Shown: positions 10,785-53,698 of the stretch, piece by piece | How positions within the stretch are numbered: position 1 is the first letter of the stretch | Layout: each line of letters opens with the position of its first letter | Origin: Candidatus Micrarchaeota archaeon | GTDB lineage: Archaea; Iainarchaeota; Iainarchaeia; JAADDC01 | DNA length: 64,000 bases | Assembly: GCA_027046625.1 (NCBI GenBank) | Contig: JALTXX010000004.1 | Location: forward strand, 1,698-65,697 | Direction of reading: 5' to 3' | Program-made: the position numbers and the translations under genes | The notes under the pieces: model-generated | Seen by the model: only the letters and a program-made list of their open reading frames with translations | Told to the model about the DNA's origin: nothing | Databases searched by the model: none

Positions 10785-10824
10785 GCCTTTTAATGGAGGA
10801 GTTCCTTCTAAGGGTGGTGATACC

Positions 10825-22833: not shown

Positions 22834-23863
22834 TACCTTGGGTGTACCCCTCGGACCTATCCTTGAAAAGGAGGAGAAAGAGCTAGAATGGTTCAGATCT
22901 AAGTTTGTAGCTCTTGATGGATTCAACACGCTCTACCAATTCATCTCCGTTATAAGACAGCCAGATGGTACTCCTCTCATGGATAGCAGGGGTAGGATAA
23001 CATCTCATCTTTCCGGAGTATTCTACAGAACCATTAGGCTGCTAGAACACGGTATAAGGGTGGTATATGTGTTTGACGGAGAGCCACCCTCTTTCAAGAT
23101 GAAAGAGATAGAGGAGCGTCAGGAGAGAAGATTGGAGGCTGAGAGTAAGTGGGTGGAGGCTCTTAGAAAGGGTGATATAGAAGAGGCCAGAAAGTATGCA
23201 ATGCAAGCATCAAGACTAGAGAGTGGGATGGTTTCCGACGCTAAAGAACTTCTTTCCGCCATGGGGATTCCATATGTGGACGCACCCTCAGAGGGGGAGG
23301 CTCAGGCAGCCTACATGGCAAGAAAGGGAGATGTGTGGGCTGCAGCTTCTCAAGACTACGATGCGGTTCTCTTTGGAGCCCCCAGACTCGTAAGAAACCT
23401 TGCCATAACAGGTAAAAGGAAGCTACCAGGCAAAAATGTATACGTGGATGTAAAACCTGAGCTCATAGAGCTAGAAAAAGTGTTGACAAAGCTTAATCTT
23501 GATAGAAGAAGGCTAATATGGGTAGGGTTGCTACTGGGGACAGACTATAATGAAAAGGTTAAGGGTGTTGGGCCAAAAAGGGCCCTTGAGATGGTTAGAT
23601 CTTATTCCTCCGTGGAAGAGCTAGCTATAAGTGTTAACCAGGATCCCGAATTGTGGAAGAAGATAGAGGCGTTCTTCCTAGATCCTCCCCATACAGACGA
23701 TTACTCCCTCTCCTTCAAAGAACCCGATCCAGATAGAATCATTGAATTTCTCGTAGAGGAACATGACTTTAGCAGAGAGAGGGTGGAAAAAGGGGTTTCA
23801 AAGCTCCTTGAAGTGACGCCCGCAAAGGGATCCCAATCATCCTTGGAGGTGTGGCTAGGATGA
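22826..23863 (+). CDS. fen: Flap endonuclease 1 (FEN-1)
   Basis: XPG-N/XPG-I organisation ([11 protein letters not shown]...VYVFDGEPP...[18 protein letters not shown]...), 345 aa, overlapping the pan stop by 8 nt. Confidence 0.9.
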
Positions 23864-24816
23864 GGGGCTTGTACACACCTCTCATAGGATTTTTGGTGCT
23901 ATCCATCGCGGTAGTGGTAGGAGCCTTCCTCTTTTCTGGTGAAATGGATAACCTTAGCAGACTTGCTACCTACTTCAGGGATAATGCTGTGTTAACCTAT
24001 ACTGAGATTGCGTCTTCAGACATCTCCTCGGAGATGCATTCCTACATAAGGAACAGAGTGTACGAGGGAGTTGAAGGATATGAAAGGGAGGAGATAAAAA
24101 ACTGGATTAAAAACAACATAAGAACATGGATATATGACTACGCGCGTTCTTTGGAGAGGAGAGAAAACATTGAAGACGTGCGGGTGAGATTAGGGGATGT
24201 AAGGATAGTAGAGAAGGACTACGGACTGCAGATAGATCCAAACACAGAATTAGAAGTGGACTACAGAACTGATAGGGGCACGTCTACCCTTAAGATAAGG
24301 GTATCGCCCTTTTCCTTATTCCTCCCCGATAATGAAACTTTGGAAGAGAGTAGAAACGAGATATCTAGTGGTGTAGAGAAGGAGCTAGATGGTGAGGGTA
24401 TTCTAAAGCCGGACAAACTAGAAAATTTAAAAAAGAAGCTAGAGGAAAAAGGGTGGAAGAATGTGGAGATAAGGAATAAGAAGATAAAAAAGGTAAAGAT
24501 ATGCAAAAGAAATGGAGCAGAGCTGGAGGAGGCAATAATATCTTTTGAGGTGTGTGCAGGTGTAAAGGAGTGGAACCCCCCTGGCATGGAGGAGATAAAG
24601 AAAAAACCCAGAGTGTGTAAGAAATTCTCCTTTTCGGCTCCTAATGCATTGGTAAGAATAGGGGGTAAAGAGTACAAGGTAGATAGCTGTAACGAGGTGG
24701 AGTGGGAGGAAGAAGATGGGTGTATAAAGGTAAAAATAAGAGGTGAAGAAAAGGCTACTCTTTGCGTAGTGGGATCTCCCTCACATCCTCGGGAAGGTAC
24801 TTCCACAACACCCTAG
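23851..24816 (+). CDS. Membrane-anchored hypothetical protein with class III-like signal peptide and Cys-containing C-terminal half
   Basis: N-terminus MARMRG|[20 protein letters not shown] resembles prepilin-type signals. The C-terminal region has a set of conserved-looking Cys residues. Overlaps FEN-1 by 13 nt and serS (convergent) by 62 nt. Confidence 0.45.
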
Positions 24817-28701: not shown

Positions 28702-28774
28702 AGCGGGGGGCGGGATTCGAACCCGCGTACACCGGATCTGCAGTCCGGCCCCTCAACCGCTCGGGCACCCCCGC
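28702..28774 (-). tRNA. tRNA-Cys (anticodon GCA)
   Basis: Reverse complement GCGGGGGTGCCCGAGCGGTTGAGGGGCCGGACTGCAGATCCGGTGTACGCGGGTTCGAATCCCGCCCCCCGCT. Anticodon stem CCGGA/TCCGG with loop CTGCAGA. T-loop TTCGAAT. U73 discriminator typical of tRNA-Cys. Confidence 0.8.
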
Positions 28775-28833
28775 ACCTACTTGATAAAGCCTCTGAATGT
28801 TTAAAGAATCATAACCTTTAATTTGACAAACAG

Positions 28834-29607
28834 TTGCACAGGTTCAGGGTAAATAAACCTCCTATGGACGATACTATCAAGAGGCTTGAAAATGTTTTGA
28901 AGAGCATCAAAGAGGGTAAAAAGTCTGCAAAAGATTTGCTCCCCTATCTGAGGCATCTTTCAAGTAGAGGGTTCATAGACTTTAGCAAGGAAGATCATAG
29001 AAAAATGCTCATAAAGATTCTTGAGAAAATGGATGAGCACAAGTTCTATTCAACCGCTTTTTGGAACCTAACAAAGAGGGTAGCAGCACATGGAGGACTA
29101 GAAGAGGTGTTTCATATCTTAGAAGAAGGTGTACCTAAAATCCCCGACACAAAAGAGGCGTTTGAGCTTTTGAAGGAAGTGGGCCTGGAGCACAACCTAT
29201 CAAATCCCGAAACACGGAGACTCTTCGTATCCATCCTTTACAGAATGAAGAGGTTCTGGGATGTCATGGAGAGGCTTGCCAAGTATGAAGAACACAGGGA
29301 CAAAATTATAGAGATGGTAAAGGACGTGTTGCCGAGATTGGGTGACTTGCCAAACATTCTCTCGCTCGCTGCAAAATTCTCCAAATTTGAGTTTTTGCGT
29401 CCTTACATTAGCATAAGGGAGTTATTGAAGAGGAAAGAACAAATCGAGCTATCTAATCTAGTAGAAAGCAGGAAAACGTTTCTAAGGAGGAAAATAGAGG
29501 AGCTAAGGGATTTGAGACTTAGCCCATACTCTGAAAAGATTAGGAGCACGTATACTAAGCAAATATCTAACGCAGTCATAAAAAGTTCACACAGGGTGGA
29601 TATATAG
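28834..29607 (+). CDS. Hypothetical alpha-helical protein (257 aa)
   Basis: Intact ORF with even composition, no transmembrane segment, and no recognisable motif. Confidence 0.5.
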   Translation: MHRFRVNKPPMDDTIKRLENVLKSIKEGKKSAKDLLPYLRHLSSRGFIDFSKEDHRKMLIKILEKMDEHKFYSTAFWNLTKRVAAHGGLEEVFHILEEGVPKIPDTKEAFELLKEVGLEHNLSNPETRRLFVSILYRMKRFWDVMERLAKYEEHRDKIIEMVKDVLPRLGDLPNILSLAAKFSKFEFLRPYISIRELLKRKEQIELSNLVESRKTFLRRKIEELRDLRLSPYSEKIRSTYTKQISNAVIKSSHRVDI

Positions 29608-29776
29608 ACATATTAGATGAAGAAGAGGCTCTTCTATTGAGAGAGTTCATAGAAGAGCTGACAAAGCTAGAACGGCACAAGCGCCCCCTTGTAAAGGAGT
29701 TCATAGAGAAGGTCAGGAAGCATTCGTTGTACAGAGAGGTCGCTAGAGGTACTTATACATAACAATTCCCAACCGA

Positions 29777-29790
29777 AAGGTATTTATTCA
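29777..29790 (+). promoter_or_regulatory. Putative TATA box upstream of the pilin-lectin gene
   Basis: AAAGGTATTTATTC about 25 nt upstream of ATG 29810. Short or no leader. Confidence 0.3.
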
Positions 29791-29809
29791 TCGTTTTTTT
29801 TTCGTTAGG

Positions 29810-30676
29810 ATGAGAGGTATCTCGCCCATTGTGGCAACGGTGCTGCTGATTGCCATAGTGATTGCTATTGGGGCATTACTTTATACGGGTATAGTGCAGA
29901 TGTTAGAGAGTTCTCCCAAGGAGAATCGTGTATACTCCGTCAGGCTAGAGGCATTCAAGGAAACGCCTCCACCCGAGGTGTACATTACAAGCTTTCACTA
30001 TTATATGCCGGTCTCTACGGAGATGAACTGGCCGGATGCATTTAACTATTGTAAAGAAAGGGGGATGTTTCTTGCCACACCCACAACCATGCCCCAAATA
30101 GACAAACTAAAGGATATTATACAGAAAAATGGGTGGTCAAATGCGTTTATAGGAGTTTATCAGGAGCCGGGAGCCGTAGAACCAGACAGGGGTTGGAAGT
30201 ACATTACTGGCATTGATGTGAGCCCCTTCTTCTGGAAAAGCGGCGAGCCTACCAATGGTCTTGGTGCCGAACACGTTGCAGTACAGACACTGAGTGGCTG
30301 GAACGATGTAAATGCTTTAAATGCGACTTTCTTTGTGTGTGAGAAGCTTGGTTTGGGGTTTACATTACAGAACCTTTCAAAGGAGGGTATAATACGCATA
30401 AACGAGCTCACACTGCATATATATGATGAGAAGAGTGGAGATCTTTTAGCTGCTGTATCTTTAGGACCGCTATCTCACCGTTTTAGTGTGAAAGGGCTCT
30501 CAGATACATTTGAAATACCAAAAATTATATGTGACGACTATGATATATCTCCGGGAGAAAGTACTACCTGTAGACTAATGGCCATTCCTTTCAAGCCCAA
30601 GCTGTACGAAAGTTTAGACCTGAAGCTTTGTCTTTCAGGAGAAGGAGTGTATGCCTGCGATACAATAAGCATTTAG
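29810..30676 (+). CDS. Archaeal pilin N-terminal domain fused to a C-type lectin-like domain
   Basis: MRGISPIVATVLLIAIVIAIGALLYTG (class III/Pilin_N). C-type lectin signatures follow: NWPDAFNYCKERGMFLATP (WxxAxxxCxxxGxxLA), AFIGVY (WIGL-like), WKYITGIDVSPFFWKSGEPTNG (WxWxDG...WxxGEPN-like), WNDVNA (WND), FFVCEK (FICEK). Confidence 0.7.
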   Translation: MRGISPIVATVLLIAIVIAIGALLYTGIVQMLESSPKENRVYSVRLEAFKETPPPEVYITSFHYYMPVSTEMNWPDAFNYCKERGMFLATPTTMPQIDKLKDIIQKNGWSNAFIGVYQEPGAVEPDRGWKYITGIDVSPFFWKSGEPTNGLGAEHVAVQTLSGWNDVNALNATFFVCEKLGLGFTLQNLSKEGIIRINELTLHIYDEKSGDLLAAVSLGPLSHRFSVKGLSDTFEIPKIICDDYDISPGESTTCRLMAIPFKPKLYESLDLKLCLSGEGVYACDTISI

Positions 30677-30760
30677 TGCGGGGGGTGGGATTCGAACCCA
30701 CGAAGGGACTAACCCAACGGGTCCTAAGCCCGTCCCCTTTGGCCGCTCGGGCACCCCCGC
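30677..30760 (-). tRNA. tRNA-Leu (anticodon TAG)
   Basis: Reverse complement GCGGGGGTGCCCGAGCGGCCAAAGGGGACGGGCTTAGGACCCGTTGGGTTAGTCCCTTCGTGGGTTCGAATCCCACCCCCCGCA. Anticodon stem ACGGG/CCCGT with loop CTTAGGA, a long variable arm, and T-loop TTCGAAT. Confidence 0.8.
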
Positions 30761-30827: not shown

Positions 30828-31619
30828 ATGGCAAGGAATAAGGAGTTTGAGTCATTTAAGAAGATGGTAATGGTGGGGTTTGGTATTCTTTTGGTGTTGC
30901 AAATACTTCAGTTTGCATACTTCTCGAATATGCTAAGCCAGGTAGGTAAGTCCTCTGCCATAAAGCTCAAAGAAATATCCCTTCCTACCTTTGACGAGTA
31001 CGATCCTAGAATAGGGGGAGGAGATACCATCCTGTTCATCGAGTTTACAGACTATGAGTGTCCGTTCTGTGCTAGACATGCAACACAGACGTTTCCGCAA
31101 ATAATGGCAAAGTATGGGGACAAAATGACGTATGCTATCATGGATCTACCTCTAACACAAATACATCCAAAGGCCATACCACTGGCTAAGCTTGTGAACT
31201 GTACCTTCAAAGAGTACGGCGGAGAGGCCGCCTTCAAACTAAAGGACTACATATTTAGCAATAGAGAGAATTGGGTGGATCTTTCCAATGAAGAAGCCAT
31301 AAATTACATAAAGAACTACCTAGCAGAGAACAACATGAACGTTGATGAGTGTGCAAATAGTACAGAGGTGGAAAGAGAGATACAGAACGATCTTGTACTG
31401 GCAGTGAGGGACTATGGATTTAATGGAACACCCAGTTTCATCATAGCCATGAAGGGTGTTACCCCAGACGAGCTTGAGGAGCTAAAGTCCACTCTTGATG
31501 ACTATGCCTTTGCAGGACTAAGATACAGACTAGTAAAGGCTGGGGATTACGTGGCGGTGATGACGTCTGGAGCGCTACCATTCCAAGTGTTTGACAACAT
31601 ACTGAAGTACGCAGGATAA
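30828..31619 (+). CDS. DsbA-like thiol:disulfide oxidoreductase (membrane-anchored)
   Basis: N-terminal transmembrane helix and a thioredoxin fold with CPFC active site (FIEFTDYECPFCARHATQTFPQI). Confidence 0.75.
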   Translation: MARNKEFESFKKMVMVGFGILLVLQILQFAYFSNMLSQVGKSSAIKLKEISLPTFDEYDPRIGGGDTILFIEFTDYECPFCARHATQTFPQIMAKYGDKMTYAIMDLPLTQIHPKAIPLAKLVNCTFKEYGGEAAFKLKDYIFSNRENWVDLSNEEAINYIKNYLAENNMNVDECANSTEVEREIQNDLVLAVRDYGFNGTPSFIIAMKGVTPDELEELKSTLDDYAFAGLRYRLVKAGDYVAVMTSGALPFQVFDNILKYAG

Positions 31620-31668
31620 CAATCGTTAACGGGAGCGTTTAAAATTACCATGCAATGGAGGGAATAGT

Positions 31669-32370
31669 ATGGCGCTGAGCGAGAACGATAAGAAGACATT
31701 AAAGGAGATGCTAAAGGTAATTGAAAGGGATGTGAAGATACTTTTCTTCCGTACGGAGAAACCCACCTGTATGTACTGTGACATCACAGAGGATTTGCTA
31801 AAGGATATTGCCTCAGTGAATGATAAGGTATCCTATGAAGTATACTGGGTGGAGAAGGACAAAGAAATGGTGGAGAAGTACGGTATAAAGGAGGCACCCG
31901 CCATACTCTTTCAGGAGTACCCAAACATTATCTATCAAGGAATACCCTCAGGGCACGAAATAATGGCATTTGTAGATGACATAAAAATGGTAGGTACTGG
32001 AAAGATGGAGTTTGAGCCTCCCGAAGAGCTAAAGAGGACGGTAAACGAGATAGATGTTCCCCTTGATATCTATGTGTTTGTAACGCCACAGTGTCCATAC
32101 TGCCCCTTTGCAGTGAAAGCATCTCATAGACTTGCATTTATGAACAAAAACATAAGGGGGTTCATGATAGAGGCATTAGAATTTCCCGAGTGGGCAGATA
32201 AATATGCAGTATCTGCTGTGCCAAAAAATGTCATAGTGGACAGAGATACAGGAAGCACATTACTTGAATGGGAAGGGTGCCCACCCGATATAGTGCAGGC
32301 TGTTGACATGTTTGCCCACTACACAGCTCATGCCGTTCTTCATAAGAAGGGGATACACCATGAGCATTGA
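31669..32370 (+). CDS. Protein disulfide oxidoreductase (PDO; two thioredoxin-fold units)
   Basis: Two CXXC sites (CMYCD in the N-terminal unit, CPYCP in the C-terminal unit), 233 aa. This is the hyperthermophile PDO architecture. Confidence 0.8.
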   Translation: MALSENDKKTLKEMLKVIERDVKILFFRTEKPTCMYCDITEDLLKDIASVNDKVSYEVYWVEKDKEMVEKYGIKEAPAILFQEYPNIIYQGIPSGHEIMAFVDDIKMVGTGKMEFEPPEELKRTVNEIDVPLDIYVFVTPQCPYCPFAVKASHRLAFMNKNIRGFMIEALEFPEWADKYAVSAVPKNVIVDRDTGSTLLEWEGCPPDIVQAVDMFAHYTAHAVLHKKGIHHEH

Positions 32371-33337
32371 GATATCCCTCTCTCTGGGAACGGTGGGCAA
32401 GAAGGAACTGGGAGAAGAATATGATGTAGTTATCATAGGAGGCGGGCCTGCAGGGTTGACAGCTGCTATTTACGCAGGTAGATCCCTCCTAAGGACAGCA
32501 GTCATATCCAAGGACTTTGGGGGGCAAGTACTTGACGCTCACCTTGTGGAAAACTATCCGGGTTTCCCCTCCATAAAGGGCTCTGAACTTATGGATAGGT
32601 TTAGAGAGCACGCTGAGAAGTTTGGAGCCGAAATGATCCAGGCAGAGGTAACAACCATAGAAAAGGAGGGAAAATGGTTCAGGATAAAAACAACCATAGG
32701 TGAGACAAGGGCAAAGGTAGTTATATACTCCACAGGCTCTGTTCACAGAAAGCTCAAGGTACCGGGTGAGGAGGAACTTCAGGGGAAGGGGGTTTCATAC
32801 TGTGCCATATGTGATGCGGCCCTCTTTAGAGGGAAAAGTGTAGCCATTGTGGGTGGAGGGAACACGGCGCTCATGGATGCAGAGCTACTCACCCAGTATG
32901 TGGAAAAACTGTACATTATACACAGAAGAAGGGAGTTTAGGGGAGAGCCCATATATGTAGAGCGTTTGAGAAAGGAGGATAAGGTAGAATTTGTGGTTCC
33001 CTACATAGTGAAAAGAATTCTTGGAAAGGAAAGGGTGGAAGGTGTAGAGATAGAGAATAGGGAAACGGGAGAGAGAAAAATACTGAAGGTGGACGGGGTG
33101 TTTATAGACATCGGCATGGAGCCCCAAACAGATCTGGTAAAACCATTAGGTGTGGAACTAAATGAGAAAGGATACATAAAGGTAAGGGAGGATATGAGCA
33201 CCAACGTGGAGGGGTTCTACGCAGCCGGGGATGTAACCACTGCTTGTAGAGGTATACACCAGATTGTTACTGCTGCTGCTCAAGGGGCTATAGCTGCTAT
33301 ATCTGCATATGAATACCTAAAGGGGTGGGAAGCATGA
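32360..33337 (+). CDS. trxB: Thioredoxin reductase (FAD/NAD(P)H, CxxC)
   Basis: GGGPAGLTAAIYAG FAD motif, CAICDA redox-active disulfide, GGGNTALMDAELL NAD(P)H motif. Start taken at MSIEIS (overlaps PDO by 11 nt). Confidence 0.85.
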   Translation: MSIEISLSLGTVGKKELGEEYDVVIIGGGPAGLTAAIYAGRSLLRTAVISKDFGGQVLDAHLVENYPGFPSIKGSELMDRFREHAEKFGAEMIQAEVTTIEKEGKWFRIKTTIGETRAKVVIYSTGSVHRKLKVPGEEELQGKGVSYCAICDAALFRGKSVAIVGGGNTALMDAELLTQYVEKLYIIHRRREFRGEPIYVERLRKEDKVEFVVPYIVKRILGKERVEGVEIENRETGERKILKVDGVFIDIGMEPQTDLVKPLGVELNEKGYIKVREDMSTNVEGFYAAGDVTTACRGIHQIVTAAAQGAIAAISAYEYLKGWEA

Positions 33338-33963
33338 GGTTGTTGGAGAAAATCTTCATAACAAGGGATTTGGTGTACCTCATCTTTGAGAAGGTGCCCT
33401 TTGAGGCTGGACATGCAATAGGGGTTAGGAAGGGAGACGTCAGGCGGTTCTACTCGCCAGCCTCCTCTCCACACGATGAGGTTACCACCCTTCTTGTAAG
33501 GTTGAAAGATGGGGGAGCTATGAGTGAGATATTCAGGAAAGCAGAACCTGGGGAGGAGTTTGAGCTGGATGGGTATGCTGGAAGGCTAGATATAAAATAC
33601 CTTGAAGGGAAAGTGGGTGTACTCTCGGCAGGCACGGGCATTGCTCCCTTCAGATCCCTGTACAGGGAGGCAAGAAGGAGAGGGATGAACCTGGATGTCA
33701 TCCACATACACTCCTCCAGATACCTGTATGAAGTACCCTTTATGGGAGAGTGGGAACGGTATGTTATCTTCATTCCCACCATTACCAGAGATGAACATTA
33801 TGAGGGGGAGAAGGGAAGAATAGATGAGGAGAAGATTAAAAAGTACATAAAAGACTTTAAGGAGAGGAGATTCCTAGTGTGTGGACCTGCAACCTTTGTG
33901 GCAAGCATGTTGAAAATGTTAAAAGGGATGGGAGTGGAGGAGGTCATTGTAGAAGGATGGTAA
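33325..33963 (+). CDS. FNR-family FAD/NAD(P)-binding oxidoreductase-like protein
   Basis: RxYS FAD motif (RRFYSPAS) and GTGIAPF NAD(P)-binding motif, 212 aa. No Fe-S cysteine cluster. Confidence 0.6.
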   Translation: MGSMRLLEKIFITRDLVYLIFEKVPFEAGHAIGVRKGDVRRFYSPASSPHDEVTTLLVRLKDGGAMSEIFRKAEPGEEFELDGYAGRLDIKYLEGKVGVLSAGTGIAPFRSLYREARRRGMNLDVIHIHSSRYLYEVPFMGEWERYVIFIPTITRDEHYEGEKGRIDEEKIKKYIKDFKERRFLVCGPATFVASMLKMLKGMGVEEVIVEGW

Positions 33964-34395
33964 TTACTCTATACCCACATCCTCAATATACTTTATGAGC
34001 TTCCTTAGGAGACGCTGTGTTTCCTCCTTCAGCTCGTTGGCATCCACCTCTAGCTTAAGAAGCTTGTTGTCAAGCTCCTTTATCTTTTTGTTATCAAGTT
34101 TTATCTTCTCCTTTAACAGGCTCTTCTTTCTTATGGTGTTTTCCAGTATCTCAATACTATTCCTTATACTTTCCATCTCAAGATAAAGGATATCAGAAAG
34201 CAAAACAAGCCTGGACCACTCCTTTCTCTGGTCAGAGGGGAGGTATGGAGCAAACCTATCAAAGTAGTAGTGTATAACGTCCACCAAATTCCCTACATAC
34301 TTCTTTACGGATCCTACCCTTTCTGGCAAATTTCCAAGGAACTTTGCCACGAGTTTATCCGCTTCCTCTTGGGGATTGGGGCGGTCCTCTGACAT
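33964..34395 (-). CDS. Hypothetical coiled-coil protein (143 aa)
   Basis: Intact ORF with heptad-like K/E/L composition. Confidence 0.4.
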   Translation of the reverse strand: MSEDRPNPQEEADKLVAKFLGNLPERVGSVKKYVGNLVDVIHYYFDRFAPYLPSDQRKEWSRLVLLSDILYLEMESIRNSIEILENTIRKKSLLKEKIKLDNKKIKELDNKLLKLEVDANELKEETQRLLRKLIKYIEDVGIE

Positions 34396-35135
34396 GTATG
34401 TTATGGATGGTAGAGGTCCGTTTAAAATGGAAACCCCTCAACATCATTATCATGGACCACCTCGGCAGGGCAAGGTTTATACTTCGATCCTACGAAAAGA
34501 AGCTATACACGCTTAACACGGTTTTAAGAGAAAGTTACAGGATAAAGGAGTTTCTTGAGAAACTCGAGGAAGACTTTGAGGCACTAAAAAAGTTTCTTGA
34601 GGAACACCCTGAGATGGACTCCATTGTTAGGGAATACGTAAAGGATCAGGAGATACTACCTGCCGTGAAGGATTTAAGGTATAAGTATACAGCTATCATG
34701 GATGTTCTTAGGGAATACAATGAAAAAATTGAAGAGATGGAGATGTTCTTTGAGAGGTATAGGAATTACAGGTACTATGTAATGGAGGAAGAGCAGATCA
34801 TTCGCCTGGTTGGAAGATTGTTCGAGGACGAGGAGAGGGTAGTATTCAGAATGGTGCTGGCAAGAAAGCCGTTCTCCGAGGAGTTTGTAAAGAAGGTAGG
34901 GGGAGAGATGGTGGACAGCTTTACCATAGAGATACCAGGAGAACTTTCTCCCCTCGCTGTGGAGAGGTTCCTTACGGAGTATCCAGATAGCGGCTTTTCT
35001 ATAGAGTCTGGAAAGTACAACGTTATATACAAACCAGAGCAGGGCATTGTAAAGGTAGAGTTTACATCCGTGGGGTATATACCCCATGTAGATAGTATCG
35101 TGAAGGGGTTGGGAGGCACCCTCCTTAACCTGTGA
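34344..35135 (+). CDS. Hypothetical protein (start probably at an internal Met near 34452)
   Basis: Intact ORF with no motif support. The N-terminal 36 codons overlap the divergent upstream gene. Confidence 0.4.
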   Translation: MPRVYPLPLGDWGGPLTCMLWMVEVRLKWKPLNIIIMDHLGRARFILRSYEKKLYTLNTVLRESYRIKEFLEKLEEDFEALKKFLEEHPEMDSIVREYVKDQEILPAVKDLRYKYTAIMDVLREYNEKIEEMEMFFERYRNYRYYVMEEEQIIRLVGRLFEDEERVVFRMVLARKPFSEEFVKKVGGEMVDSFTIEIPGELSPLAVERFLTEYPDSGFSIESGKYNVIYKPEQGIVKVEFTSVGYIPHVDSIVKGLGGTLLNL

Positions 35136-35176
35136 GTTCGACGATTGTTTTTATTAGGTTCGTCACATATCATAGC

Positions 35177-35881
35177 ATGGATAAGCTTGCCCTTATTATA
35201 GCGGGAGAAATATCTCTATCCAAGGACCCTGGCTCCTCCATGAGGAAGTGGAGAGAGCTTTTTGGCATTAGCCAGTCTGAACTCTCCCACCATCTTGGAG
35301 TTTCGGCTTCTACCATATCAGACTATGAGAGTGGCAGGAGAAAAAGCCCTGGAATAAACGTTGTGAGGAGGTTTGTACAGGCCCTTATAGACATCGACAG
35401 ATCGAGGGGAGGAAAGATAGTGAAGCATCTCGAAAGGCAGCTCATAAAAGGATACGAGGAAGCCACCTATGAGGTTCACGAGTTCTACACTGGGGTTCCT
35501 GCCTCTGAATTTATAAAGCGTATAGAGGGAAATGTTATTGTAAACGAAGAATTTGTGCCCAACACCATGATATTTGGCTATACCCTCATTGATTCTATAC
35601 GGACCATTACAGAGCTTTCCTCAAAGGAGTACATAAGATTGTTTGGATCCACTCCTCGCAGGGCCCTCATCTTTACAGGAGTAACCACAGGAAGATCTCC
35701 CATGATAGCCATTAAGATAGGTAAATTCTGTGCAGACTTCTCTCCTGAAATCGTAGTAATGACAGGTATAGAGAGGCCGGATGGCGTGGCGATAAAGATT
35801 GCGGAGAAGGAGAAGATCATACTTGTAACTACCTTCATGGAACCTAGAGACATTGTCAACTCTCTCAAGGAGTTTGAATAG
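35177..35881 (+). CDS. XRE-type HTH transcriptional regulator with C-terminal domain (COG1395-like)
   Basis: HTH segment MRKWRELFGISQSELSHHLGVSASTISDYESGRRKSP, then an approximately 150 aa domain. Start taken at MDKLAL. Confidence 0.55.
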   Translation: MDKLALIIAGEISLSKDPGSSMRKWRELFGISQSELSHHLGVSASTISDYESGRRKSPGINVVRRFVQALIDIDRSRGGKIVKHLERQLIKGYEEATYEVHEFYTGVPASEFIKRIEGNVIVNEEFVPNTMIFGYTLIDSIRTITELSSKEYIRLFGSTPRRALIFTGVTTGRSPMIAIKIGKFCADFSPEIVVMTGIERPDGVAIKIAEKEKIILVTTFMEPRDIVNSLKEFE

Positions 35882-36887
35882 ATTGGGCTATCTTCTTGAT
35901 TACATTTACGTTACCTAGTATTTTTCCATCCTTCAAAACACAGTATTGATACACATTGTTCTCATAGACTGGAGTTCCAAGCCTCTTGCACAGCTCCTCC
36001 TCCTGGGGGAACAAGCCGTTTACCTCTTGATTCTTAGAGGGGAAACCAAGCACTACCATGTTTTTGGCTATAAGGAGGGGTACAGATCCATCCCAAGATA
36101 GGTTCAGCTCTCTTACAATCCTGAAACCTTCGCTTCTGGAAACCTCCATGTAGGGTATGTTATACTCCTCTAGGTACCGCTTCAGGTTTATACAATGGGG
36201 GCAAGTGGGATCCCCTACCAACACAACATCCGATTCTGCCATCCCAAGGGATACAGAAGGCACCATGTAAAGGGCTACAAGGAAGAGGAGAAGGGAGGCA
36301 AGAAGGTGGAGATATCTTACATGTTTGTTTCTCCATTCAGCCACGCGCTCGGGATCGAGTCCTATTCCCACAAGGATGGTAATGGCTACCATGGGGAGAA
36401 CAAACACGACGTTGTATAGTAATAGGAGAGATATATCATTCATCATTCCTATTGCGGCAAGGTAGGGACCTGAAGTGCAAGGAAGAAGGAATATTGAGCA
36501 AAAAACAGCCACAGGAATGGCCGAAATCGGGTTTTTTGCTGTCTCTATAATCTTCTTTGCATATGGTCTTAAGAACATGGGCATCTCAAGGGAAGAAAAG
36601 CCAGGCTTGTAAAAGAGAAAAGCCTTTAGTTCCCAGAGTGCGAGAAGCAGTACAAGGAAGAACACTACACCTTTAAGGATAGAGTAGGTGTCAGTAACGG
36701 TAAAGAAGGTCATTAATCCCAACCCGTAAAGTGTGTACATAATAAACACGGTAGCTGTAAAGAGTATTCCTCCCAGTATAGCATTTCTTCTCCCCCCAGA
36801 GGATAGCAGCACCACAAGAAGGGCTGCCATTATGGCCAAGGTACAGGGGTTTACAGAGTCTGCCAGCGCTAGCAGAATGATCTCCAT
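35865..36887 (-). CDS. DsbD/CcdA-like transmembrane disulfide-transfer protein with C-terminal thioredoxin-like CxxC domain
   Basis: Two membrane-embedded Cys motifs (SVNPCTL and LLPCTSGPY) typical of CcdA/DsbD cores, plus C-terminal GDPTCPHCINLK. Confidence 0.65.
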   Translation of the reverse strand: MEIILLALADSVNPCTLAIMAALLVVLLSSGGRRNAILGGILFTATVFIMYTLYGLGLMTFFTVTDTYSILKGVVFFLVLLLALWELKAFLFYKPGFSSLEMPMFLRPYAKKIIETAKNPISAIPVAVFCSIFLLPCTSGPYLAAIGMMNDISLLLLYNVVFVLPMVAITILVGIGLDPERVAEWRNKHVRYLHLLASLLLFLVALYMVPSVSLGMAESDVVLVGDPTCPHCINLKRYLEEYNIPYMEVSRSEGFRIVRELNLSWDGSVPLLIAKNMVVLGFPSKNQEVNGLFPQEEELCKRLGTPVYENNVYQYCVLKDGKILGNVNVIKKIAQSIQTP

Positions 36888-36940
36888 TTTACATTACAAT
36901 CTGAGAAAGCCTTTTAGTAGCTACATAACAGTGTTAATGC

Positions 36941-37381
36941 GTGAGGATATCCCTAGGTAGAAGGGATGAAAAACTTTTTCTTATAGGAGTAGCAATAGTC
37001 CTCCTTGCATTCTACCTAGGAACTAGACAGTCCATCCTATTCTACGAGTACCTTCCACATTCCATCCCAGAAAACGGCATCCTAGTATTCTATCAACCCT
37101 CCTGTCCAAAGTGCATAGAGGAGATTCCCGTCATACAGAGACTTGTGAATGAGGGGTACAGGGTTCACACAATAGATGTGTACGAACGGCCGGATATTGC
37201 GGCTCTCTTTGGTGTGACAGTTACCCCTACTATTGTCATTCTTCCGGAGAGGACAAAATTAGAGGGGGCCGTATCTTATGATGACATTATGAGAGCCATA
37301 AAGGAAGGTGTTGAAGTAAAGGGGGAGGGCTGTGAGGTAAATATAGAAGGTGGGGGAGCTATAGCATGTGGGCTTACCTAA
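36941..37381 (+). CDS. Thioredoxin/glutaredoxin-like protein (CPKC), membrane-anchored
   Basis: N-terminal transmembrane helix and Trx-fold with FYQPSCPKCIEEIPV. Confidence 0.6.
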   Translation: MRISLGRRDEKLFLIGVAIVLLAFYLGTRQSILFYEYLPHSIPENGILVFYQPSCPKCIEEIPVIQRLVNEGYRVHTIDVYERPDIAALFGVTVTPTIVILPERTKLEGAVSYDDIMRAIKEGVEVKGEGCEVNIEGGGAIACGLT

Positions 37382-37929
37382 ATGGTATATTTGCAAGTCT
37401 TGGAGGGTGTACACTTCCGGTGCTTTCCATGCTGGTAGCAAAGGCTAAAGATAAAAATTTCAACAGAGTACGCTTTCTTTTGGAGTTTTTAGTAGTGCAA
37501 TTCCTTATATTTTCTGCCATAAACATAGGTGCTGCCTCCTTTTACGCTATATTTCGAGAGATTCAGCCAATAATGTTACTCATAGCATCTATCATAACAC
37601 TATACATAGCATTTGAGATGTACAGGGGGAGGGGTGTAAACCTCCCAGCGGTGGGTGGCATATACGGTATAGCCCTTTCTCCATGCTCCGTAGGGTTTGC
37701 GGTAGCAACGGCTGCCATGAGTATGGACGTGTATAACGCCATTCTCAATGCGTTCCTCTTCTCCCTTGGTGTTGTTACACCCCTAATAGTAGTAATGTTT
37801 ATTATACAAAGTGTGGAGCCCTTTATGAGGTACGGAGATGAAATAGAACTATTTGGATCTGTGTTACTGGTTATAGTGGCTGCGTACCTTGCATTCCTTG
37901 CAGGAAGTGGATGGAGGTGGGTGCCATGA
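37366..37929 (+). CDS. CcdA-like membrane protein (possible disulfide-transfer core)
   Basis: About six hydrophobic helices with Cys residues in helices 1 and 4 (LGGCTLPV, LSPCSVGF). Confidence 0.45.
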   Translation: MWAYLNGIFASLGGCTLPVLSMLVAKAKDKNFNRVRFLLEFLVVQFLIFSAINIGAASFYAIFREIQPIMLLIASIITLYIAFEMYRGRGVNLPAVGGIYGIALSPCSVGFAVATAAMSMDVYNAILNAFLFSLGVVTPLIVVMFIIQSVEPFMRYGDEIELFGSVLLVIVAAYLAFLAGSGWRWVP

Positions 37930-38192
37930 GTATATTTTGGTTTCATCTTATCATCCTTATAATTTTGGGCATTATCCTATTACCACCAGCCTTAAGGGGC
38001 AATAGAAGGGTTGCTATACCCATTCTAGGATTGCTGGGGCTATTTCTCTTCCACTGCATCTACTGGGGGGAAGCATGTACCCTCTGTGACATAACAAATC
38101 CTGTTTGTATGGCAGAGATTGGAGCATTCTGGCTGTTTTCCATATGGGGGATAATAGAATGGTGGCTACAATACCATACTCCCCAAAAATGA
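37911..38192 (+). CDS. Small membrane protein with a CxxC motif (93 aa)
   Basis: Two to three hydrophobic helices and a CTLCD motif in a short loop. Confidence 0.35.
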   Translation: MEVGAMSIFWFHLIILIILGIILLPPALRGNRRVAIPILGLLGLFLFHCIYWGEACTLCDITNPVCMAEIGAFWLFSIWGIIEWWLQYHTPQK

Positions 38193-38611
38193 GGGGAGAA
38201 TCTGATCAACCTCTGGAAAAACAGCTTGTAGATCTGGAGAAATTGGATGCTGAGGGGTATATGAGGGTTGTGCATCACGCAGGGGAGAGGGGTTATCATA
38301 TAAAGCTGGTTCTAAACGATAAAGAAGCTATATCTCTCTTCGTGTGGAATGAGAAGGTATTTAGGGGAGAAAATACCCTTGCAAGGAGTTATGGCATCAT
38401 ACCCATTGAAGAGATAGAGCCAGACGAGGGAGACGAAATACTAGCAGAAGGCAGGTATAAACTAAAAGATGGGATATTGGAGCTATTCTTTGAGAAGGGA
38501 AAGTATAGTGGAACCATTAAGTACAGGCTGAAACTAAAAGGTATAAAGGAGTATATATCCCAAAAGCACGGACACTCCGTAAGGCCGGAGTATTTTCTCA
38601 TAGCTCTATAA
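38105..38611 (+). CDS. Hypothetical protein (168 aa)
   Basis: Intact ORF with no motif. Start is probably an internal Met. Confidence 0.4.
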   Translation: MYGRDWSILAVFHMGDNRMVATIPYSPKMRGESDQPLEKQLVDLEKLDAEGYMRVVHHAGERGYHIKLVLNDKEAISLFVWNEKVFRGENTLARSYGIIPIEEIEPDEGDEILAEGRYKLKDGILELFFEKGKYSGTIKYRLKLKGIKEYISQKHGHSVRPEYFLIAL

Positions 38612-44639: not shown

Positions 44640-45293
44640 TTACCTCACCCACACAACTACATTATTTCCTCCAGCAGAAAGCTCTATGGTTTTGTCCCCC
44701 TTCCTGAGTATAATGCCTCTTGTTGTTAACACATTGGGCTCGATCCACCCCTCCTCCTTTAACCACTCCCTTAGTTGGGTGAAGTATTCCCCGTTAAACT
44801 CTCCAAACACCCTATAGATAAGCTTATTTCCCTCTACACTCTCCAACACCACCACGGAGAACATCCGCCCAAGTGCATTTCTTACATCCTCATCAACGGG
44901 AGATAGGTGAGGCGGAAGCTGTGGAGATGGATAAAGTATAACCCTCATGATATAAAGATTTTCATCCCGTGGGGTTAGATATATCTGAAAACGATAATCA
45001 CCTAGCATTCTCAGCACTATTGTGTTATCCTCCTCCCATCCATAGAAGTAGAGGTTGCATAGATCAGATGCTTCTTGAATGTAGAGCAAAAGGCTGTTTA
45101 GATCCCCTCTGTAAATGTAGTTCCACTCGTTATCCCGATAGGACGCTAGGGCGGTGTTTGGGATATCATAGAGACAGGGCGGAGAAGGGTAACCCATAGA
45201 AGCGGATGGTTGGTAGGTTGTATAACTGTAAAGTAGTAAAATAACGGCTAGCAACGCTACAGCTGCCACTATAGAGCGTCGGGGAAGTTCCAT
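44640..45293 (-). CDS. Secreted or membrane-anchored hypothetical protein
   Basis: N-terminal transmembrane/signal segment (SIVAAVALLAVILLLY) and a Y/W-rich body. Confidence 0.45.
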   Translation of the reverse strand: MELPRRSIVAAVALLAVILLLYSYTTYQPSASMGYPSPPCLYDIPNTALASYRDNEWNYIYRGDLNSLLLYIQEASDLCNLYFYGWEEDNTIVLRMLGDYRFQIYLTPRDENLYIMRVILYPSPQLPPHLSPVDEDVRNALGRMFSVVVLESVEGNKLIYRVFGEFNGEYFTQLREWLKEEGWIEPNVLTTRGIILRKGDKTIELSAGGNNVVVWVR

Positions 45294-47965: not shown

Positions 47966-50236
47966 GTGTTGGGGTGTAATAAAGTTTATGTGGTTGTGGA
48001 AGTAGAAGGTGGCAAAAGGATACTGAGAATCGATGCCAGAGACTGGCCCACGGGAGGTTCTGTTGTAGACTATCCCGAGAGCATGTTTAGGGTTGTTTCT
48101 GAACTCATGAAGGAAGATGCAGATATTGTAATTGTAACCGACGTTTATGATCATGTATACGGGGAGGACGCCGTAAATATCTTGAAGGAGATTGCAAAAG
48201 TGGGGAAAATCTTCCAATCAGAAGGATACTGGAGCTTCTCTGTAGTAGAGAAATTAGGTAGAGGGTGTGCTAATCCCCTAAAAAATGAACAGGTATGGGT
48301 TGTAAGGGTAACACACGATCTTTGGTTAAGCGATCCTGTAAGGGCTTATCTAGAGGTGCTGAGAAAAATAAAGGGTTACACATCCTTGGATGGTTATCCA
48401 GAGGCTATAAGAAGATGTATAGAGCAATACGTATCCATCCTCAAGAAGATAAAGACTCACATGGAGTCTACAAGGATTATCTCAAAGGTAAGAGAGTACA
48501 TAGCAACCCAGCGACGGGCCCCCGATAGAGGATTCTACAGAACCATCCTTCCCGTCCAAATAAAACCCGCCTTTCTTGGATCGGGTATTATAAGTGGTTT
48601 GGGAGAAGATCTCGAGCTCGTAGACTCCTACACCCTAGAGGGAGATGTGGAAGTATCCATATACAGGGATCCAAACAGTGTAGAGTATTTATACTATCTT
48701 CAAGCACCTGAATTTTCTCTGTCTCCACAACTTTACATGGTATTAGAGAAGGCAAAACAGATGGCAGCAGAGTACACCCCTTCAAGTACCCTCCTAACCT
48801 CCAGATCCTTTGCAAGGCGACAGTTTGAGGAAATGTATATGCAAACCATCATAGATGTGTCCAGACAGATGGGTATTCCTCTAGAAGAGGATGATCTAAG
48901 GCTTCTTTCCTCTATTCTTGCTAGATATACCGTGGGTTATGGTATTCTGGAGCTGTTCTTCTTGGACAGAAACCTAACAGACATATATGTGGATGCACCA
49001 CTAAGTACCAGGCCGGTATATGTACTCCACTCAAGGTACGGCCAGTGTAGAACAAACATTGTATACTCAGAGACGGAAGCAAAGAACTTCGTATCCAAGC
49101 TTAGATCTATGAGCGGAAGACCCTTTGACGAGGCCCATCCTGTTTTGGATTATGATATTCCAGATTTGCACGTAAGAGTAGCCGTTATAGGGCCACCTCT
49201 TTCCCCTGATGGCATTGCCTTCGCATTTAGACTCCACAGACCAACACCTTGGACGCTGCCCCTGTTCCTTGATGTAAATATGTTGACTCCTCTAGCCGCT
49301 GGTCTCTTATCCTTTCTTGTAGACGCCCAATCAACATTGCTCATCTCTGGAAGCAGAGGCTCTGGTAAGACATCTCTCATGACGTCCCTTATACTTGAGA
49401 TACCTCAGAACCAACGCATTCTCGTACAGGAAGACACATTGGAGATTCCCGTGGAAGCTATAAGAAAGCACGGGTATCATATCCAACGCCTAAAGACTAG
49501 GAGTCCTATCGGAGGAGGAGCCGCAGGGGAGGTTCCTCCAGAGGATGCCCTTAGAACAGCCCTCAGGTTGGGAGATTCCGCCATTGTGATAGGAGAGGTG
49601 AGATCTAGAGAGGCGAAGGTACTATACGAAGCCATGAGGGTGGGGGCAGCAGGCAGTACAGTGATGGGAACTATTCACGGTGATTCCGCATATTCTGTGT
49701 GGGATAGAGTGGTCAACGACTTGGGTGTACCCACCACCTCCTTCAAGGCAACGGATGTGGTGGTAGTGAACGCTCCTATTAGATTTGGGGGGTCCCTTAA
49801 AAGGGTAAGAAGAACCATCTCCATAACAGAAGTATTGAAGCATTGGAAGGCAGAACCTTTAGAGGAGGGTGGTTTCCTTGATATTATGAGGTATTCCGCA
49901 GATAGGGATAGATTGGAACTGCTGGAGGATAACGTAAGAAACTCCGAGCTGCTTATGAAGATCGGAAGGCTTAGAGGAATGAGTCCAGAAATGATATGGG
50001 AAGAAATTAGGGCAAGGGGGGAAGAAAAGGCCCTTGTTGCAAGGTTGAGTAGAGAATACAAGGTAAGGGAACTTATGGAAGCGGAGCACTATTCAATTAT
50101 ACATAACAAGTTCCTCCTCCTAAAGGAGCAACAACTGGAAGAGCATGGAGAAGTAGACTACCCCTCCCTCCTCAAGGATCTTGAAAATTGGATAAAGAAC
50201 ACGCTTGTGAGGGAGATCCTTGCCAGGAGAGGCTGA
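47966..50236 (+). CDS. FlaI/GspE-family secretion ATPase with an N-terminal extension of about 200 aa
   Basis: Walker A LISGSRGSGKTS, Asp/His boxes, Walker B region VIGEVRSREA. At 756 aa it is longer than typical FlaI proteins (about 550 aa). Confidence 0.85.
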   Translation: MLGCNKVYVVVEVEGGKRILRIDARDWPTGGSVVDYPESMFRVVSELMKEDADIVIVTDVYDHVYGEDAVNILKEIAKVGKIFQSEGYWSFSVVEKLGRGCANPLKNEQVWVVRVTHDLWLSDPVRAYLEVLRKIKGYTSLDGYPEAIRRCIEQYVSILKKIKTHMESTRIISKVREYIATQRRAPDRGFYRTILPVQIKPAFLGSGIISGLGEDLELVDSYTLEGDVEVSIYRDPNSVEYLYYLQAPEFSLSPQLYMVLEKAKQMAAEYTPSSTLLTSRSFARRQFEEMYMQTIIDVSRQMGIPLEEDDLRLLSSILARYTVGYGILELFFLDRNLTDIYVDAPLSTRPVYVLHSRYGQCRTNIVYSETEAKNFVSKLRSMSGRPFDEAHPVLDYDIPDLHVRVAVIGPPLSPDGIAFAFRLHRPTPWTLPLFLDVNMLTPLAAGLLSFLVDAQSTLLISGSRGSGKTSLMTSLILEIPQNQRILVQEDTLEIPVEAIRKHGYHIQRLKTRSPIGGGAAGEVPPEDALRTALRLGDSAIVIGEVRSREAKVLYEAMRVGAAGSTVMGTIHGDSAYSVWDRVVNDLGVPTTSFKATDVVVVNAPIRFGGSLKRVRRTISITEVLKHWKAEPLEEGGFLDIMRYSADRDRLELLEDNVRNSELLMKIGRLRGMSPEMIWEEIRARGEEKALVARLSREYKVRELMEAEHYSIIHNKFLLLKEQQLEEHGEVDYPSLLKDLENWIKNTLVREILARRG

Positions 50237-52241: not shown

Positions 52242-52606
52242 AAGGCCAAGCGTACACACTGTTCAACTACCTCGCATGGGCTGCCTTTTTTGTAGCTGCA
52301 ATAGGGGTTGTGTACATCGTATTCAACAACTCCATAAGACAGGCAACTCCTGTTCCCATCGAAACGATAAACGATGTCCTCCGCAGCGCGGCAGAGCAAA
52401 GAAAGGTAGGTATAGACACCCCTGTATGTGCAGATCTCTACGTTAGCGGTGAAATAACCATTACTAAGGATATTGTGGGAAGATATGGTCTAAATTTGGA
52501 CCTAAAGTGTGAAAACGTAACTTGCAGAGAAGAGGAGGATGGTATAACCATATGGGGCAGTGGGAGATTATGTGTAGAAGGTGGAGTTCTCGTGTGGAAG
52601 CGTTAA
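52238..52606 (+). CDS. Pilin-like protein with class III signal peptide
   Basis: MKG|QAYTLFNYLAWAAFFVAAIGVVYIVF. The ATG overlaps the flaJ-like stop (ATGA). Confidence 0.55.
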   Translation: MKGQAYTLFNYLAWAAFFVAAIGVVYIVFNNSIRQATPVPIETINDVLRSAAEQRKVGIDTPVCADLYVSGEITITKDIVGRYGLNLDLKCENVTCREEEDGITIWGSGRLCVEGGVLVWKR

Positions 52607-52636
52607 TATTTTATATCTCCATCATCTAATAGTGGC

Positions 52637-53050
52637 ATGAAGGGCCAAGCCTTTGAGGTATTCAGGCTTCTCATTGCAGCAGTAATTGGGGGGGCTATCC
52701 TTATGGTATTGTTAGGCATACTTCAGGGCATCATATCACCTACTACAGATCCTCAAACTGCCACAGCCCAGCTTGTAAAGAAAAACTCCAAGTTTGGTGG
52801 TATAGGAACCACAGACGTGATAACTTTCAGAAAGGACATGTACATAGATCTGAGAGCAGTCGCAAGGGAGGCATACCTTGACACGGAATGTGTAAAAGTT
52901 GGAGATGTATTAGAGGGTTTTGAAAAAAAAGATGATAAAGTAATAAGATACGCAGGGACCGGTACAAGGGCAAAGATAATGGTGGAATGCACCGAAAGTG
53001 AAAATAAAAAATGTCCCATCGAGTGTACGGTTTCCATCATCCGTCCTTAA
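52637..53050 (+). CDS. Pilin-like protein with class III signal peptide
   Basis: MKG|QAFEVFRLLIAAVIGGAILMVLLGIL (Glu at +4, as in type IV pilins). Confidence 0.6.
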   Translation: MKGQAFEVFRLLIAAVIGGAILMVLLGILQGIISPTTDPQTATAQLVKKNSKFGGIGTTDVITFRKDMYIDLRAVAREAYLDTECVKVGDVLEGFEKKDDKVIRYAGTGTRAKIMVECTESENKKCPIECTVSIIRP

Positions 53051-53190
53051 AAGGGATGAACGTTTAATATTAGCATGAGAGCAGGTGGAGACTGGAATGT
53101 TATATACCTCCTTGTGGTAGCTATTGTGGCAGCCCTGCTTATTTTCGGGGTGATAAAGCCATCCATGGCTAAAGGGTACAGGGTGGTCAA

Positions 53191-53694: not shown

Positions 53695-53698
53695 AAGA

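Follow-up and report, generated by a model that had tools for sequence, protein, structure and literature searches.

The bacterial DsbD/CcdA pathway is built around a six-helix membrane core with redox cysteines in the first and the fourth transmembrane helix (TM1 and TM4), a cytoplasmic donor driven by thioredoxin reductase (TrxR) and encoded beside the conduit, and an extracytoplasmic acceptor with a thioredoxin (Trx) fold, which is either fused to the core (as DsbD-gamma) or separately anchored (as ResA). The periplasmic partners of these conduits include DsbC, CcmG and ResA. In the streptococcal CcdA-Etrx-MsrAB system two parallel CcdA conduits each feed a surface thioredoxin, in cells without an outer membrane. 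The ScsABCD system of Salmonella comprises ScsA, a small membrane protein that has CX2C but no Trx fold, the DsbD-like conduit ScsB, ScsC with its DsbA fold and the membrane-anchored thioredoxin ScsD (PMC10907172). In archaea such as Pyrococcus and Sulfolobus an NADPH-type TrxR is partnered by a PDO with two CxxC sites; electron transfer from NADPH via TrxR to PDO has been established in Sulfolobus, where TrxR/PDO also reduces the Bcp peroxiredoxins (PMC7465337). Almost nothing has been published on the formation or proofreading of extracellular disulfides in archaea, especially in DPANN, and our literature search on disulfide systems of DPANN or Micrarchaeota found nothing specific. Here we analysed a cluster of thiol-disulfide redox genes at positions 30828-38192 of a 64-kb stretch of contig JALTXX010000004.1 (GCA_027046625.1; the whole stretch is called the window below), which an earlier note on this DNA had read as a dedicated folding pathway for surface proteins.

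We concluded that the cluster is probably an archaeal form of the DsbD/CcdA-type reductive pathway, which is driven by a PDO, duplicated, and equipped with a new small subunit. Every redox gene named in the earlier note is present, as follows.

30828-31619, plus strand: DsbA-like (BdbD/ScsC-type) membrane-anchored Trx-fold protein of 263 aa with CPFC; Pfam Thioredoxin_4
31669-32370, plus strand: PDO with two Trx folds, CMYC and CPYC; TIGR02187
32360-33337, plus strand: thioredoxin reductase (TrxR) with CAIC; TIGR01292
33325-33963, plus strand: short flavoprotein of 212 aa of the ferredoxin-NADP reductase (FNR) family; FAD_binding_6 and NAD_binding_1
35865-36887, minus strand: six-helix core of the DsbD/CcdA superfamily with a C-terminal CPHC glutaredoxin-like (Grx-like) domain (DsbD-Grx fusion); assigned from the family alignment
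36941-37381, plus strand: Trx146, N-terminally anchored minimal thioredoxin of 146 aa with CPKC; Pfam Thioredoxin and TraF
37366-37929, plus strand: CcdA187, second CcdA-like six-helix core of 187 aa with Cys15 (GGCT) in TM1 and Cys107 (SPCS) in TM4
37926-38192, plus strand: small88, small CTLC membrane protein that has 88 aa and three TM helices; unannotated, the likely true start being 37926

Open reading frames (ORFs) with a CxxC motif were enriched in this region, with 6 of 11 compared to 11 of 70 across the window (hypergeometric p = 0.001). The cluster shares with the bacterial DsbD/CcdA pathway the core architecture, both kinds of Trx-fold acceptor and the TrxR-driven donor encoded beside the conduit. 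It differs in that the donor is a two-domain PDO and not thioredoxin, the acceptors bear the DsbA-type motifs CPHC and CPKC, one conduit has an extra three-helix, four-cysteine subunit and a thioredoxin with a cysteine pair in its tail, the cores are too divergent for the Pfam DsbD thresholds, and the host is archaeal and shows no hint of c-type cytochromes. A four-cysteine subunit on one conduit is unprecedented. The two parallel conduits, each with a surface thioredoxin and in the absence of an outer membrane, resemble the streptococcal system, but no MsrAB gene is present in the cluster and the thioredoxins are attached through a TM helix or a fusion instead of a lipid. With ScsABCD the cluster has the same four kinds of parts in one locus. 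This resemblance is one of the parts list only: small88 matches no family and was not directly compared with the ScsA sequence, the ScsB alpha domain is lacking here, and genes for cytoplasmic reductases, which Scs does not have, lie inside the cluster. The TrxR and PDO are like those of Pyrococcus and Sulfolobus (E ~1e-40 to the PDO of P. furiosus and P. horikoshii), whereas their genes are here adjacent, coupled to the FNR-like gene and placed beside membrane conduits; the cytoplasmic proteome of the window is in addition poor in cysteine, while PDO usually goes with a disulfide-rich cytoplasm.

The conserved, operon-linked part of the cluster is, as read from the sequences, a reductive relay of TrxR/PDO, CcdA-type conduits and surface Trx domains. 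We compared the cluster with 79 genome loci holding a relative of the DsbD-Grx fusion, and extra loci were added via the small protein and via CcdA187. The module Trx-CcdA-small was seen in at least nine loci, once with a fusion. Wherever the sequence reached far enough, the order was kept (the window, L005, L084, L089, L090, L092, L095 and L097), and L083 has the core joined to the small protein in one polypeptide (P0162). The PDO-TrxR-FNR block adjoins these three genes in the window, L084 and L092. The three species share 50-75% protein identity, and two of them have the block in the opposite orientation to that of the window and with different genes in between. In L013 the PDO-TrxR pair lies ~7 kb from the DsbD-Grx gene. 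Only in the window and L005 does the DsbD-Grx fusion stand beside the Trx operon. Conservation of the cluster order in relatives, which the earlier note had proposed to check, was thus seen for the Trx-CcdA-small and PDO-TrxR-FNR modules and did not extend to the DsbA-like gene, which has no orthologue, or to the upstream lectin-pilin gene, whose linkage was not supported.

Single loci showed further genes next to the operon. In L090 (4682-6038, 10799-11260) a Bcp-type peroxiredoxin gene directly follows the Trx-CcdA-small operon, and genes for desulfoferrodoxin (superoxide reductase), a rubrerythrin-like protein and a 1-Cys peroxiredoxin are located within 6 kb of it. In L092 (4998-7028) the operon is directly followed by the gene of a large secreted protein (>677 aa) with a cleavable-looking signal peptide; this Cys-rich protein is a candidate substrate.

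The gene for small88 was skipped by the gene callers applied to metagenome-assembled genomes (MAGs), yet it is conserved. An orthologue of the same length is present at the same position in the far more GC-rich L005, and among 1.84 billion representative proteins eight homologues were detected, with E down to 5e-18. The family has ~9 cluster representatives, always located behind a CcdA-like gene, and is fused to CcdA in P0162/L083. The residues His43, Cys44, Cys51, Cys54, Cys61, Glu64 and Phe68 are invariant and make up the motif H-C-x6-C-x2-C-x6-C...E...F on the predicted outer face. The Cys-rich loop was placed outside because of the natural fusion to a CcdA core whose C-terminus is out. 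Both ends of the gene form ATGA overlaps, the start with the stop of CcdA187 and the stop with the next start. The AlphaFold2 (AF2) model consists of three helices with a predicted local distance difference test (pLDDT) score of 93. No match to small88 was obtained in Pfam or NCBIfam, and a Foldseek search of the model against the PDB gave no DsbB, VKOR or other match (all E > 6). We concluded from its conservation that small88 is a real gene, encoding what appears to be a newly recognised Cys-rich subunit of a CcdA conduit. Together, Trx146, CcdA187 and small88 have ten conserved cysteines, arranged like a multi-station relay.

Both cores have six TM helices with one cysteine in TM1 and one in TM4, each in a Pro/Gly-Cys motif and invariant in the orthologues. 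In the fusion core these are Cys15 (NPC) and Cys137 (LPC), and NPC as well as LLPCSSGPY were invariant in the family alignment. Relatives of the fusion core at 35-47% identity match PF11139 (SfLAP), PF13386 (DsbD_2) and PF02683 (DsbD), and hhalign aligned the CcdA187 family to the fusion family with 85% probability (E = 6e-6) and with both cysteines in register. A phmmer search with CcdA187 gave no matches, and a profile search of the PDB sequences with the DsbD-Grx family returned Trx/Grx domains only and no CcdA structure. The fused Grx domain scored 23.0 bits in Pfam against a cut-off of 22.9, and carries a second conserved Cys pair besides CPHC. Trx146, for which an MJ0307-type Trx was the best natural PDB match, has CPKC in the window and CPHC in its orthologues, as well as an invariant Cys pair (C131 and C143) in its C-terminal tail. 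CPHC is thus the consensus among the Trx146 orthologues and is invariant in the family of the fused domain. The genes of the Trx146-CcdA187-small protein operon are joined by a 16-nt overlap and then the ATGA overlap.

The position of the CPHC domain varies within the DsbD-like family: it is C-terminal in the lineage of the window, Micrarchaeota have it at the N-terminus after a signal peptide, and it is split off as a separate anchored gene in two Iainarchaeum MAGs (L013 9956-11118, L014 6378-7564). Tandem copies of the DsbD-like core were seen in L016 and L040, and members of the family also occur in Patescibacteria.

Three Trx-fold domains were predicted to be extracytoplasmic, namely those of the DsbA-like protein, Trx146 and the fusion, so that the Trx folds of the cluster are not all cytoplasmic. 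The DsbA-like protein has four K/R residues at its N-terminus (KR = 4), followed by one hydrophobic segment (13-33), which puts its catalytic domain outside, and the K/R-rich N-terminus and single hydrophobic segment of Trx146 predict the same for its domain. In the two six-helix cores, loops 1, 3 and 5 carry 2, 4, 3 and 2, 2, 1 K/R residues, respectively, and loops 0, 2 and 4 carry none. From these charges both termini of the cores are predicted to be outside and with them the fused Grx domain. This placement agrees with the relatives, in which the GCPHC domain stands behind a signal peptide (Micrarchaeota) or is separately anchored (L013, L014), and with the extra conserved Cys pairs of the extracytoplasmic domains.

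PDO, TrxR and the FNR-like protein are without hydrophobic segments and were placed inside the cell. PDO reached 206.9 bits with TIGR02187 (equivalog cut-off 185) and matched the PDO of P. horikoshii with E = 1.8e-40 and that of P. furiosus with 5.8e-40; the structures 1a8l and 1j08 were matched with E ~1e-40. TrxR reached 369.9 bits with TIGR01292 (cut-off 343.45); its CAIC is located at residues 148-151, and it contains the NADPH-type HRRxxxR motif, which reads HRRREFR. The start codon of TrxR is backed by the alignment with the L084 orthologue, and the first 11 nt of the gene are shared with the end of PDO. The FNR-like gene in turn shares its first 13 nt with the end of TrxR, and the two genes also overlap in L084 and L092. 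Its product was recognised by FAD_binding_6 (28.0 bits vs 21.1) and NAD_binding_1 (31.8 bits vs 22.0), carries the motifs RxYS (RRFYSP), GTGIAP and CGP (VCGP), and has its best PDB matches among bacterial ferredoxin-NADP reductases.

For the cluster as a whole we lean, with modest confidence, towards a transmembrane thiol-disulfide relay that moves reducing power outward to thioredoxin-like domains on the surface. NADPH would reduce TrxR in the cytoplasm, and the translationally coupled FNR-like flavoprotein might regenerate NADPH from ferredoxin. TrxR would then reduce the two-domain PDO, which would stand in for thioredoxin and reduce the membrane-embedded Cys pairs of the two CcdA/DsbD-type conduits. 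This membrane step was included because of the DsbD/CcdA signature and the conserved gene linkage. The first conduit would hand electrons to its own fused extracytoplasmic CPHC Grx-like domain, whereas the second would pair with the co-translated three-helix Cys-rich subunit and the anchored thioredoxin with its tail Cys pair. The surface CPxC domains would correct wrong disulfides by reduction or isomerisation and restore oxidised thiols of pilin-like and other surface proteins with even Cys numbers. The DsbA-like protein, encoded at the head of the PDO operon, could introduce disulfides as an oxidase, or it could be served by the conduits as a client in the manner of ScsC. The outward direction of the electrons, the partner pairings and the substrates are what we infer from the sequences.

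An even-Cys bias of exported proteins is a published criterion for extracytoplasmic disulfide formation (PMC12453122). We therefore counted cysteines in the mature part of the 13 window ORFs outside the cluster that have a single N-terminal hydrophobic segment (the exported set); ORF calling and export prediction for these counts were simple heuristics. An even count was found in 11 of the 12 exported ORFs that contain Cys (p = 0.003), the single odd one being a NUDIX ORF with an over-extended start. Among the soluble ORFs of the window 16 of 35 hold any Cys, and the count was even in 9 of these 16, which shows no parity bias. The Cys density was fourfold higher in the exported set than in the cytoplasmic one. 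In 73 other DPANN loci the count was even in 62 of 77 exported proteins (p = 3e-8), compared to 281 of 621 cytoplasmic ones. The parity count that the earlier note had suggested thus gave a strong even bias in both samples, and with 11 even counts among 12 the exported proteins of the window probably do form disulfides outside the cell. Many of the 13 ORFs come from a type IV pilus-like locus at ~47966-55046, which encodes a T2SSE ATPase, one polytopic membrane protein and six small ORFs of the pilin-like kind. These pilin-like ORFs and the other N-terminally anchored ones (10491-11262, 23851-24816, 44640-45293) have even counts almost throughout.

Several observations weigh against the outward relay. 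The fusion itself had no match to a DsbD-family profile, and CcdA187 scored 19.2 bits with Pfam DsbD_2, under the cut-off of 24.9. The AF2 model of CcdA187, calculated from a six-sequence alignment, showed six helices with a low-confidence pLDDT of 59, and Foldseek with this model against the PDB gave weak matches to MFS transporters and none to CcdA. The topologies were derived from hydropathy and the positive-inside rule and not from a dedicated predictor. The outward electron direction has homology and gene linkage as its sole basis. PDO-TrxR was not found within the sampled 10 kb upstream in L090 and L095. CPHC is the classic oxidising motif of DsbA, and a surface CPHC is unusual for a reductase partner. 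Finally, no candidate for DsbB, BdbC or VKOR was detected in the 64-kb window, where the only membrane ORFs with CxxC are the CcdA-type genes and small88, and thus no evident source of the disulfides.

On the oxidative side the only oxidase candidate was the DsbA-like protein, which matched Pfam PF13462 Thioredoxin_4 with 64.4 bits (cut-off 23.2, E = 1.9e-17). It shares with the DsbA/BdbD oxidases the Thioredoxin_4/DSBA fold, a CPxC motif (CPFC at residues 78-81), a T-P matched to the cis-Pro loop (GTPSF, opposite ATPIF of 3f4r in the alignment), a second Cys pair (C125 and C175) as in alpha-DsbA1 and the predicted extracytoplasmic position; the even-Cys bias of the exported proteome is a further likeness. 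PDB relatives were alpha-DsbA1, C. diphtheriae DsbA, MdbA and ScsC (the latter with E ~5e-5), and the wider relatives are bacterial BdbD-type proteins. In contrast to those oxidases, the CPFC motif resembles the CPYC of ScsC and DsbG, and the gene is species-specific and is not accompanied by a recognisable DsbB/BdbC/VKOR in the window: no orthologue was found beyond its own species, the best non-self match having 37% identity over 57% of the length, and the nearest homologue adjoins a multicopper oxidase. A TATA-like sequence, TTTTATAAA, lies ~27 nt upstream of its ATG. In L084 a 308-aa gene at the corresponding position was considered as a divergent DsbA and rejected, since its product is Cys-free and cytoplasmic. 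Of the oxidative and reductive routes that the earlier note had seen in the cluster, the reductive relay is the conserved one; the oxidative arm is plausible but lacks both an orthologue of the DsbA-like protein and a DsbB/VKOR in the window.

The cluster had also been described as starting directly after the lectin-pilin gene, whose only disulfide (NYC...FFVCEK) was thought to need forming outside the cell. Neither statement held, as the following neighbours show.

29810-30676, plus strand: lectin-pilin with class III signal peptide, C-type lectin domain and six Cys; neighbour, outside the cluster
30676-30760, minus strand: tRNA-Leu(TAG), found by ARAGORN, between lectin-pilin and the redox cluster; breakpoint of synteny between strains

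The tRNA gene on the opposite strand intervenes, and the six cysteines of the lectin-pilin are located at 81, 177, 241, 254, 274 and 283. The protein matched Lectin_C with 31 bits (vs 22.6) and the pilin N-terminus TIGR02537 with 29.6 bits (vs 20). Together with a gene for an uncharacterised protein of 257 aa it forms a 1.9-kb islet between two minus-strand tRNA genes (window 28702-30760), tRNA-Cys at 28702-28774 and the tRNA-Leu. In the conspecific L003 the cluster proteins are 100% identical, Trx146 and small93 99%. The alignment with L003 shows identity on the cluster side of tRNA-Leu and unrelated sequence beyond it, where the lectin-pilin is absent. This difference suggests a strain-variable insertion site. 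Because the tRNA gene separates them and the L003 sequence is unrelated beyond it, the tie of the lectin-pilin to the cluster is unsupported and the linkage was rejected; as a substrate candidate the protein is plausible. The proposed dedicated pathway for surface proteins was partly borne out, as a coherent envelope thiol-disulfide system without the lectin-pilin tie and with an oxidative half that is no more than plausible.

Other explanations of the cluster were weighed against the outward relay. It could serve as a defence of the envelope against oxidative or metal stress, with the relay supplying surface thioredoxins for the repair of thiols and methionines damaged by oxidation or copper, in the manner of the streptococcal CcdA-Etrx-MsrAB and the Salmonella ScsABCD systems. 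This account overlaps with the outward relay, from which it differs mainly in physiological purpose, and we consider it possible but rather unlikely. It would fit the peroxiredoxin, superoxide reductase and rubrerythrin-like genes around the L090 operon, the reduction of Bcp peroxiredoxins by TrxR/PDO in Sulfolobus, the metal-rich vent habitat, the parts list that parallels Scs (small CX2C membrane protein, DsbD-like, DsbA-like and anchored Trx; PMC10907172), and the DsbA-like protein with its matches to ScsC structures (E ~5e-5) and its nearest homologue beside a multicopper oxidase. The cluster in the window contains, however, no Msr, peroxidase or copper-handling gene, small88 has no detectable homology to any family in Pfam or NCBIfam, and the even-Cys exports point to structural disulfides that need management. 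A purely coincidental arrangement, with PDO-TrxR-FNR as cytoplasmic housekeeping genes that came to lie near membrane Trx modules in a compact genome, was judged very improbable. DPANN genomes are gene-dense, three unrelated genes (coiled-coil, 227-aa and helix-turn-helix (HTH)) are interleaved, and the flanks sampled in L090 and L095 contain no PDO-TrxR; against this, the adjacency outlasts inversion and changes of the intervening genes in three species at 50-75% identity, and a CcdA-type conduit needs a cytoplasmic Trx-like donor, for which PDO/TrxR was the only candidate seen.

The conduits might also run in reverse, with the CPHC domains oxidising exported proteins and electrons flowing inward through the CcdA cores and small88 to PDO and on to peroxiredoxins or another sink. 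Such a route would replace DsbB/VKOR in the quinone-less DPANN and perhaps in Patescibacteria. The oxidising-type CPHC, invariant in the fused domain and consensus in the Trx146 orthologues, speaks for it, as do the even-Cys exports that are widespread in DPANN loci with the DsbD-Grx family, with no DsbB/VKOR in the window, the Bcp peroxiredoxin directly after the L090 operon, and the four Cys of the membrane subunit, which resemble the two-pair logic of DsbB/VKOR. We nevertheless regard this direction as improbable: every characterised CcdA/DsbD carries electrons outward, the close coupling with the gene of an NADPH-type TrxR suggests that reducing power is fed in, the passage of electrons inward to NADP+ is unfavourable on thermodynamic grounds, Foldseek gave no similarity of small88 to DsbB or VKOR, and a DsbB/VKOR could lie elsewhere in the genome. 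Least credible of all, in our view, is a System II-like maturation of cytochrome c by CcdA and a ResA-type thioredoxin. CcdA with a membrane-anchored thioredoxin is indeed the classical reducing branch of System II, but the 70 window ORFs contain no CxxCH haem motif, neither the scanned cluster genes nor the neighbours of the related operons included a recognisable ResB or ResC/CcsBA-like gene, and the family is spread across DPANN and Patescibacteria, which are generally without respiratory chains.

An identical sequence is present in the hydrothermal-vent MAG GCA_015521515.1 (contig WANZ01000032) and in a REYS20 metagenome scaffold. The nearest protein relatives come from MAGs labelled Micrarchaeota, Iainarchaeum/Diapherotrites, Undinarchaeota, Aenigmarchaeota and Nanoarchaeota, and more distant ones from Patescibacteria. 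Because of the exact match to a vent MAG and the relatives in DPANN-labelled MAGs, the source organism is, judged by these matches, a thermophilic DPANN archaeon. Its lineage is generally without quinones. DPANN live attached to other cells and depend on pili and surface proteins, which in the examined loci are rich in paired Cys. The locus offers in one place a nearly complete candidate pathway from an NADPH-linked reductase to surface thioredoxins, with its conserved parts evident, and it sharpens the question from where oxidising equivalents originate in organisms without quinones. If the reverse route were true, it would explain the disulfide-bonded, even-Cys surface proteome of episymbionts that have no respiratory chain. 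In either case the locus supplies defined proteins for dsb complementation in E. coli and for proteoliposome assays.

The remaining genes within and directly behind the cluster are the following.

33964-34395, minus strand: coiled-coil protein of 143 aa, Cys-free; accompanies the PDO block in L084
34452-35135, plus strand: cytoplasmic protein of 227 aa, Cys-free; conserved in L084
35177-35881, plus strand: XRE-type HTH_3 protein with a C-terminal domain of ~150 aa; Pfam HTH_3 E = 1.5e-10
38189-38611, plus strand: orf140, Cys-free cytoplasmic protein of ~140 aa; begins with an ATGA overlap at the stop codon of small88

The interleaved gene that had been described as an HTH regulator encodes the HTH_3 protein. 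Its product is 89% identical to the counterpart in L084 (3-326), compared to 50-75% for the neighbouring genes. This conservation suggests an important kept role, which may be unrelated to regulation of the redox genes. The product of orf140 is 69-75% identical in L005, L007 and L084 and exceeds the redox genes in conservation. No family match (Pfam, NCBIfam) and no PDB match was obtained for it. The gene is the fourth member of the operon in several relatives and adjoins the DsbD-Grx gene in L007; its product may be a cytoplasmic accessory of the conduits. Positions 1-19 of L003 are a Nextera transposase adapter, AGATGTGTATAAGAGACAG, in the Logan contig, and the extreme 5' end of that locus is thus not genomic.

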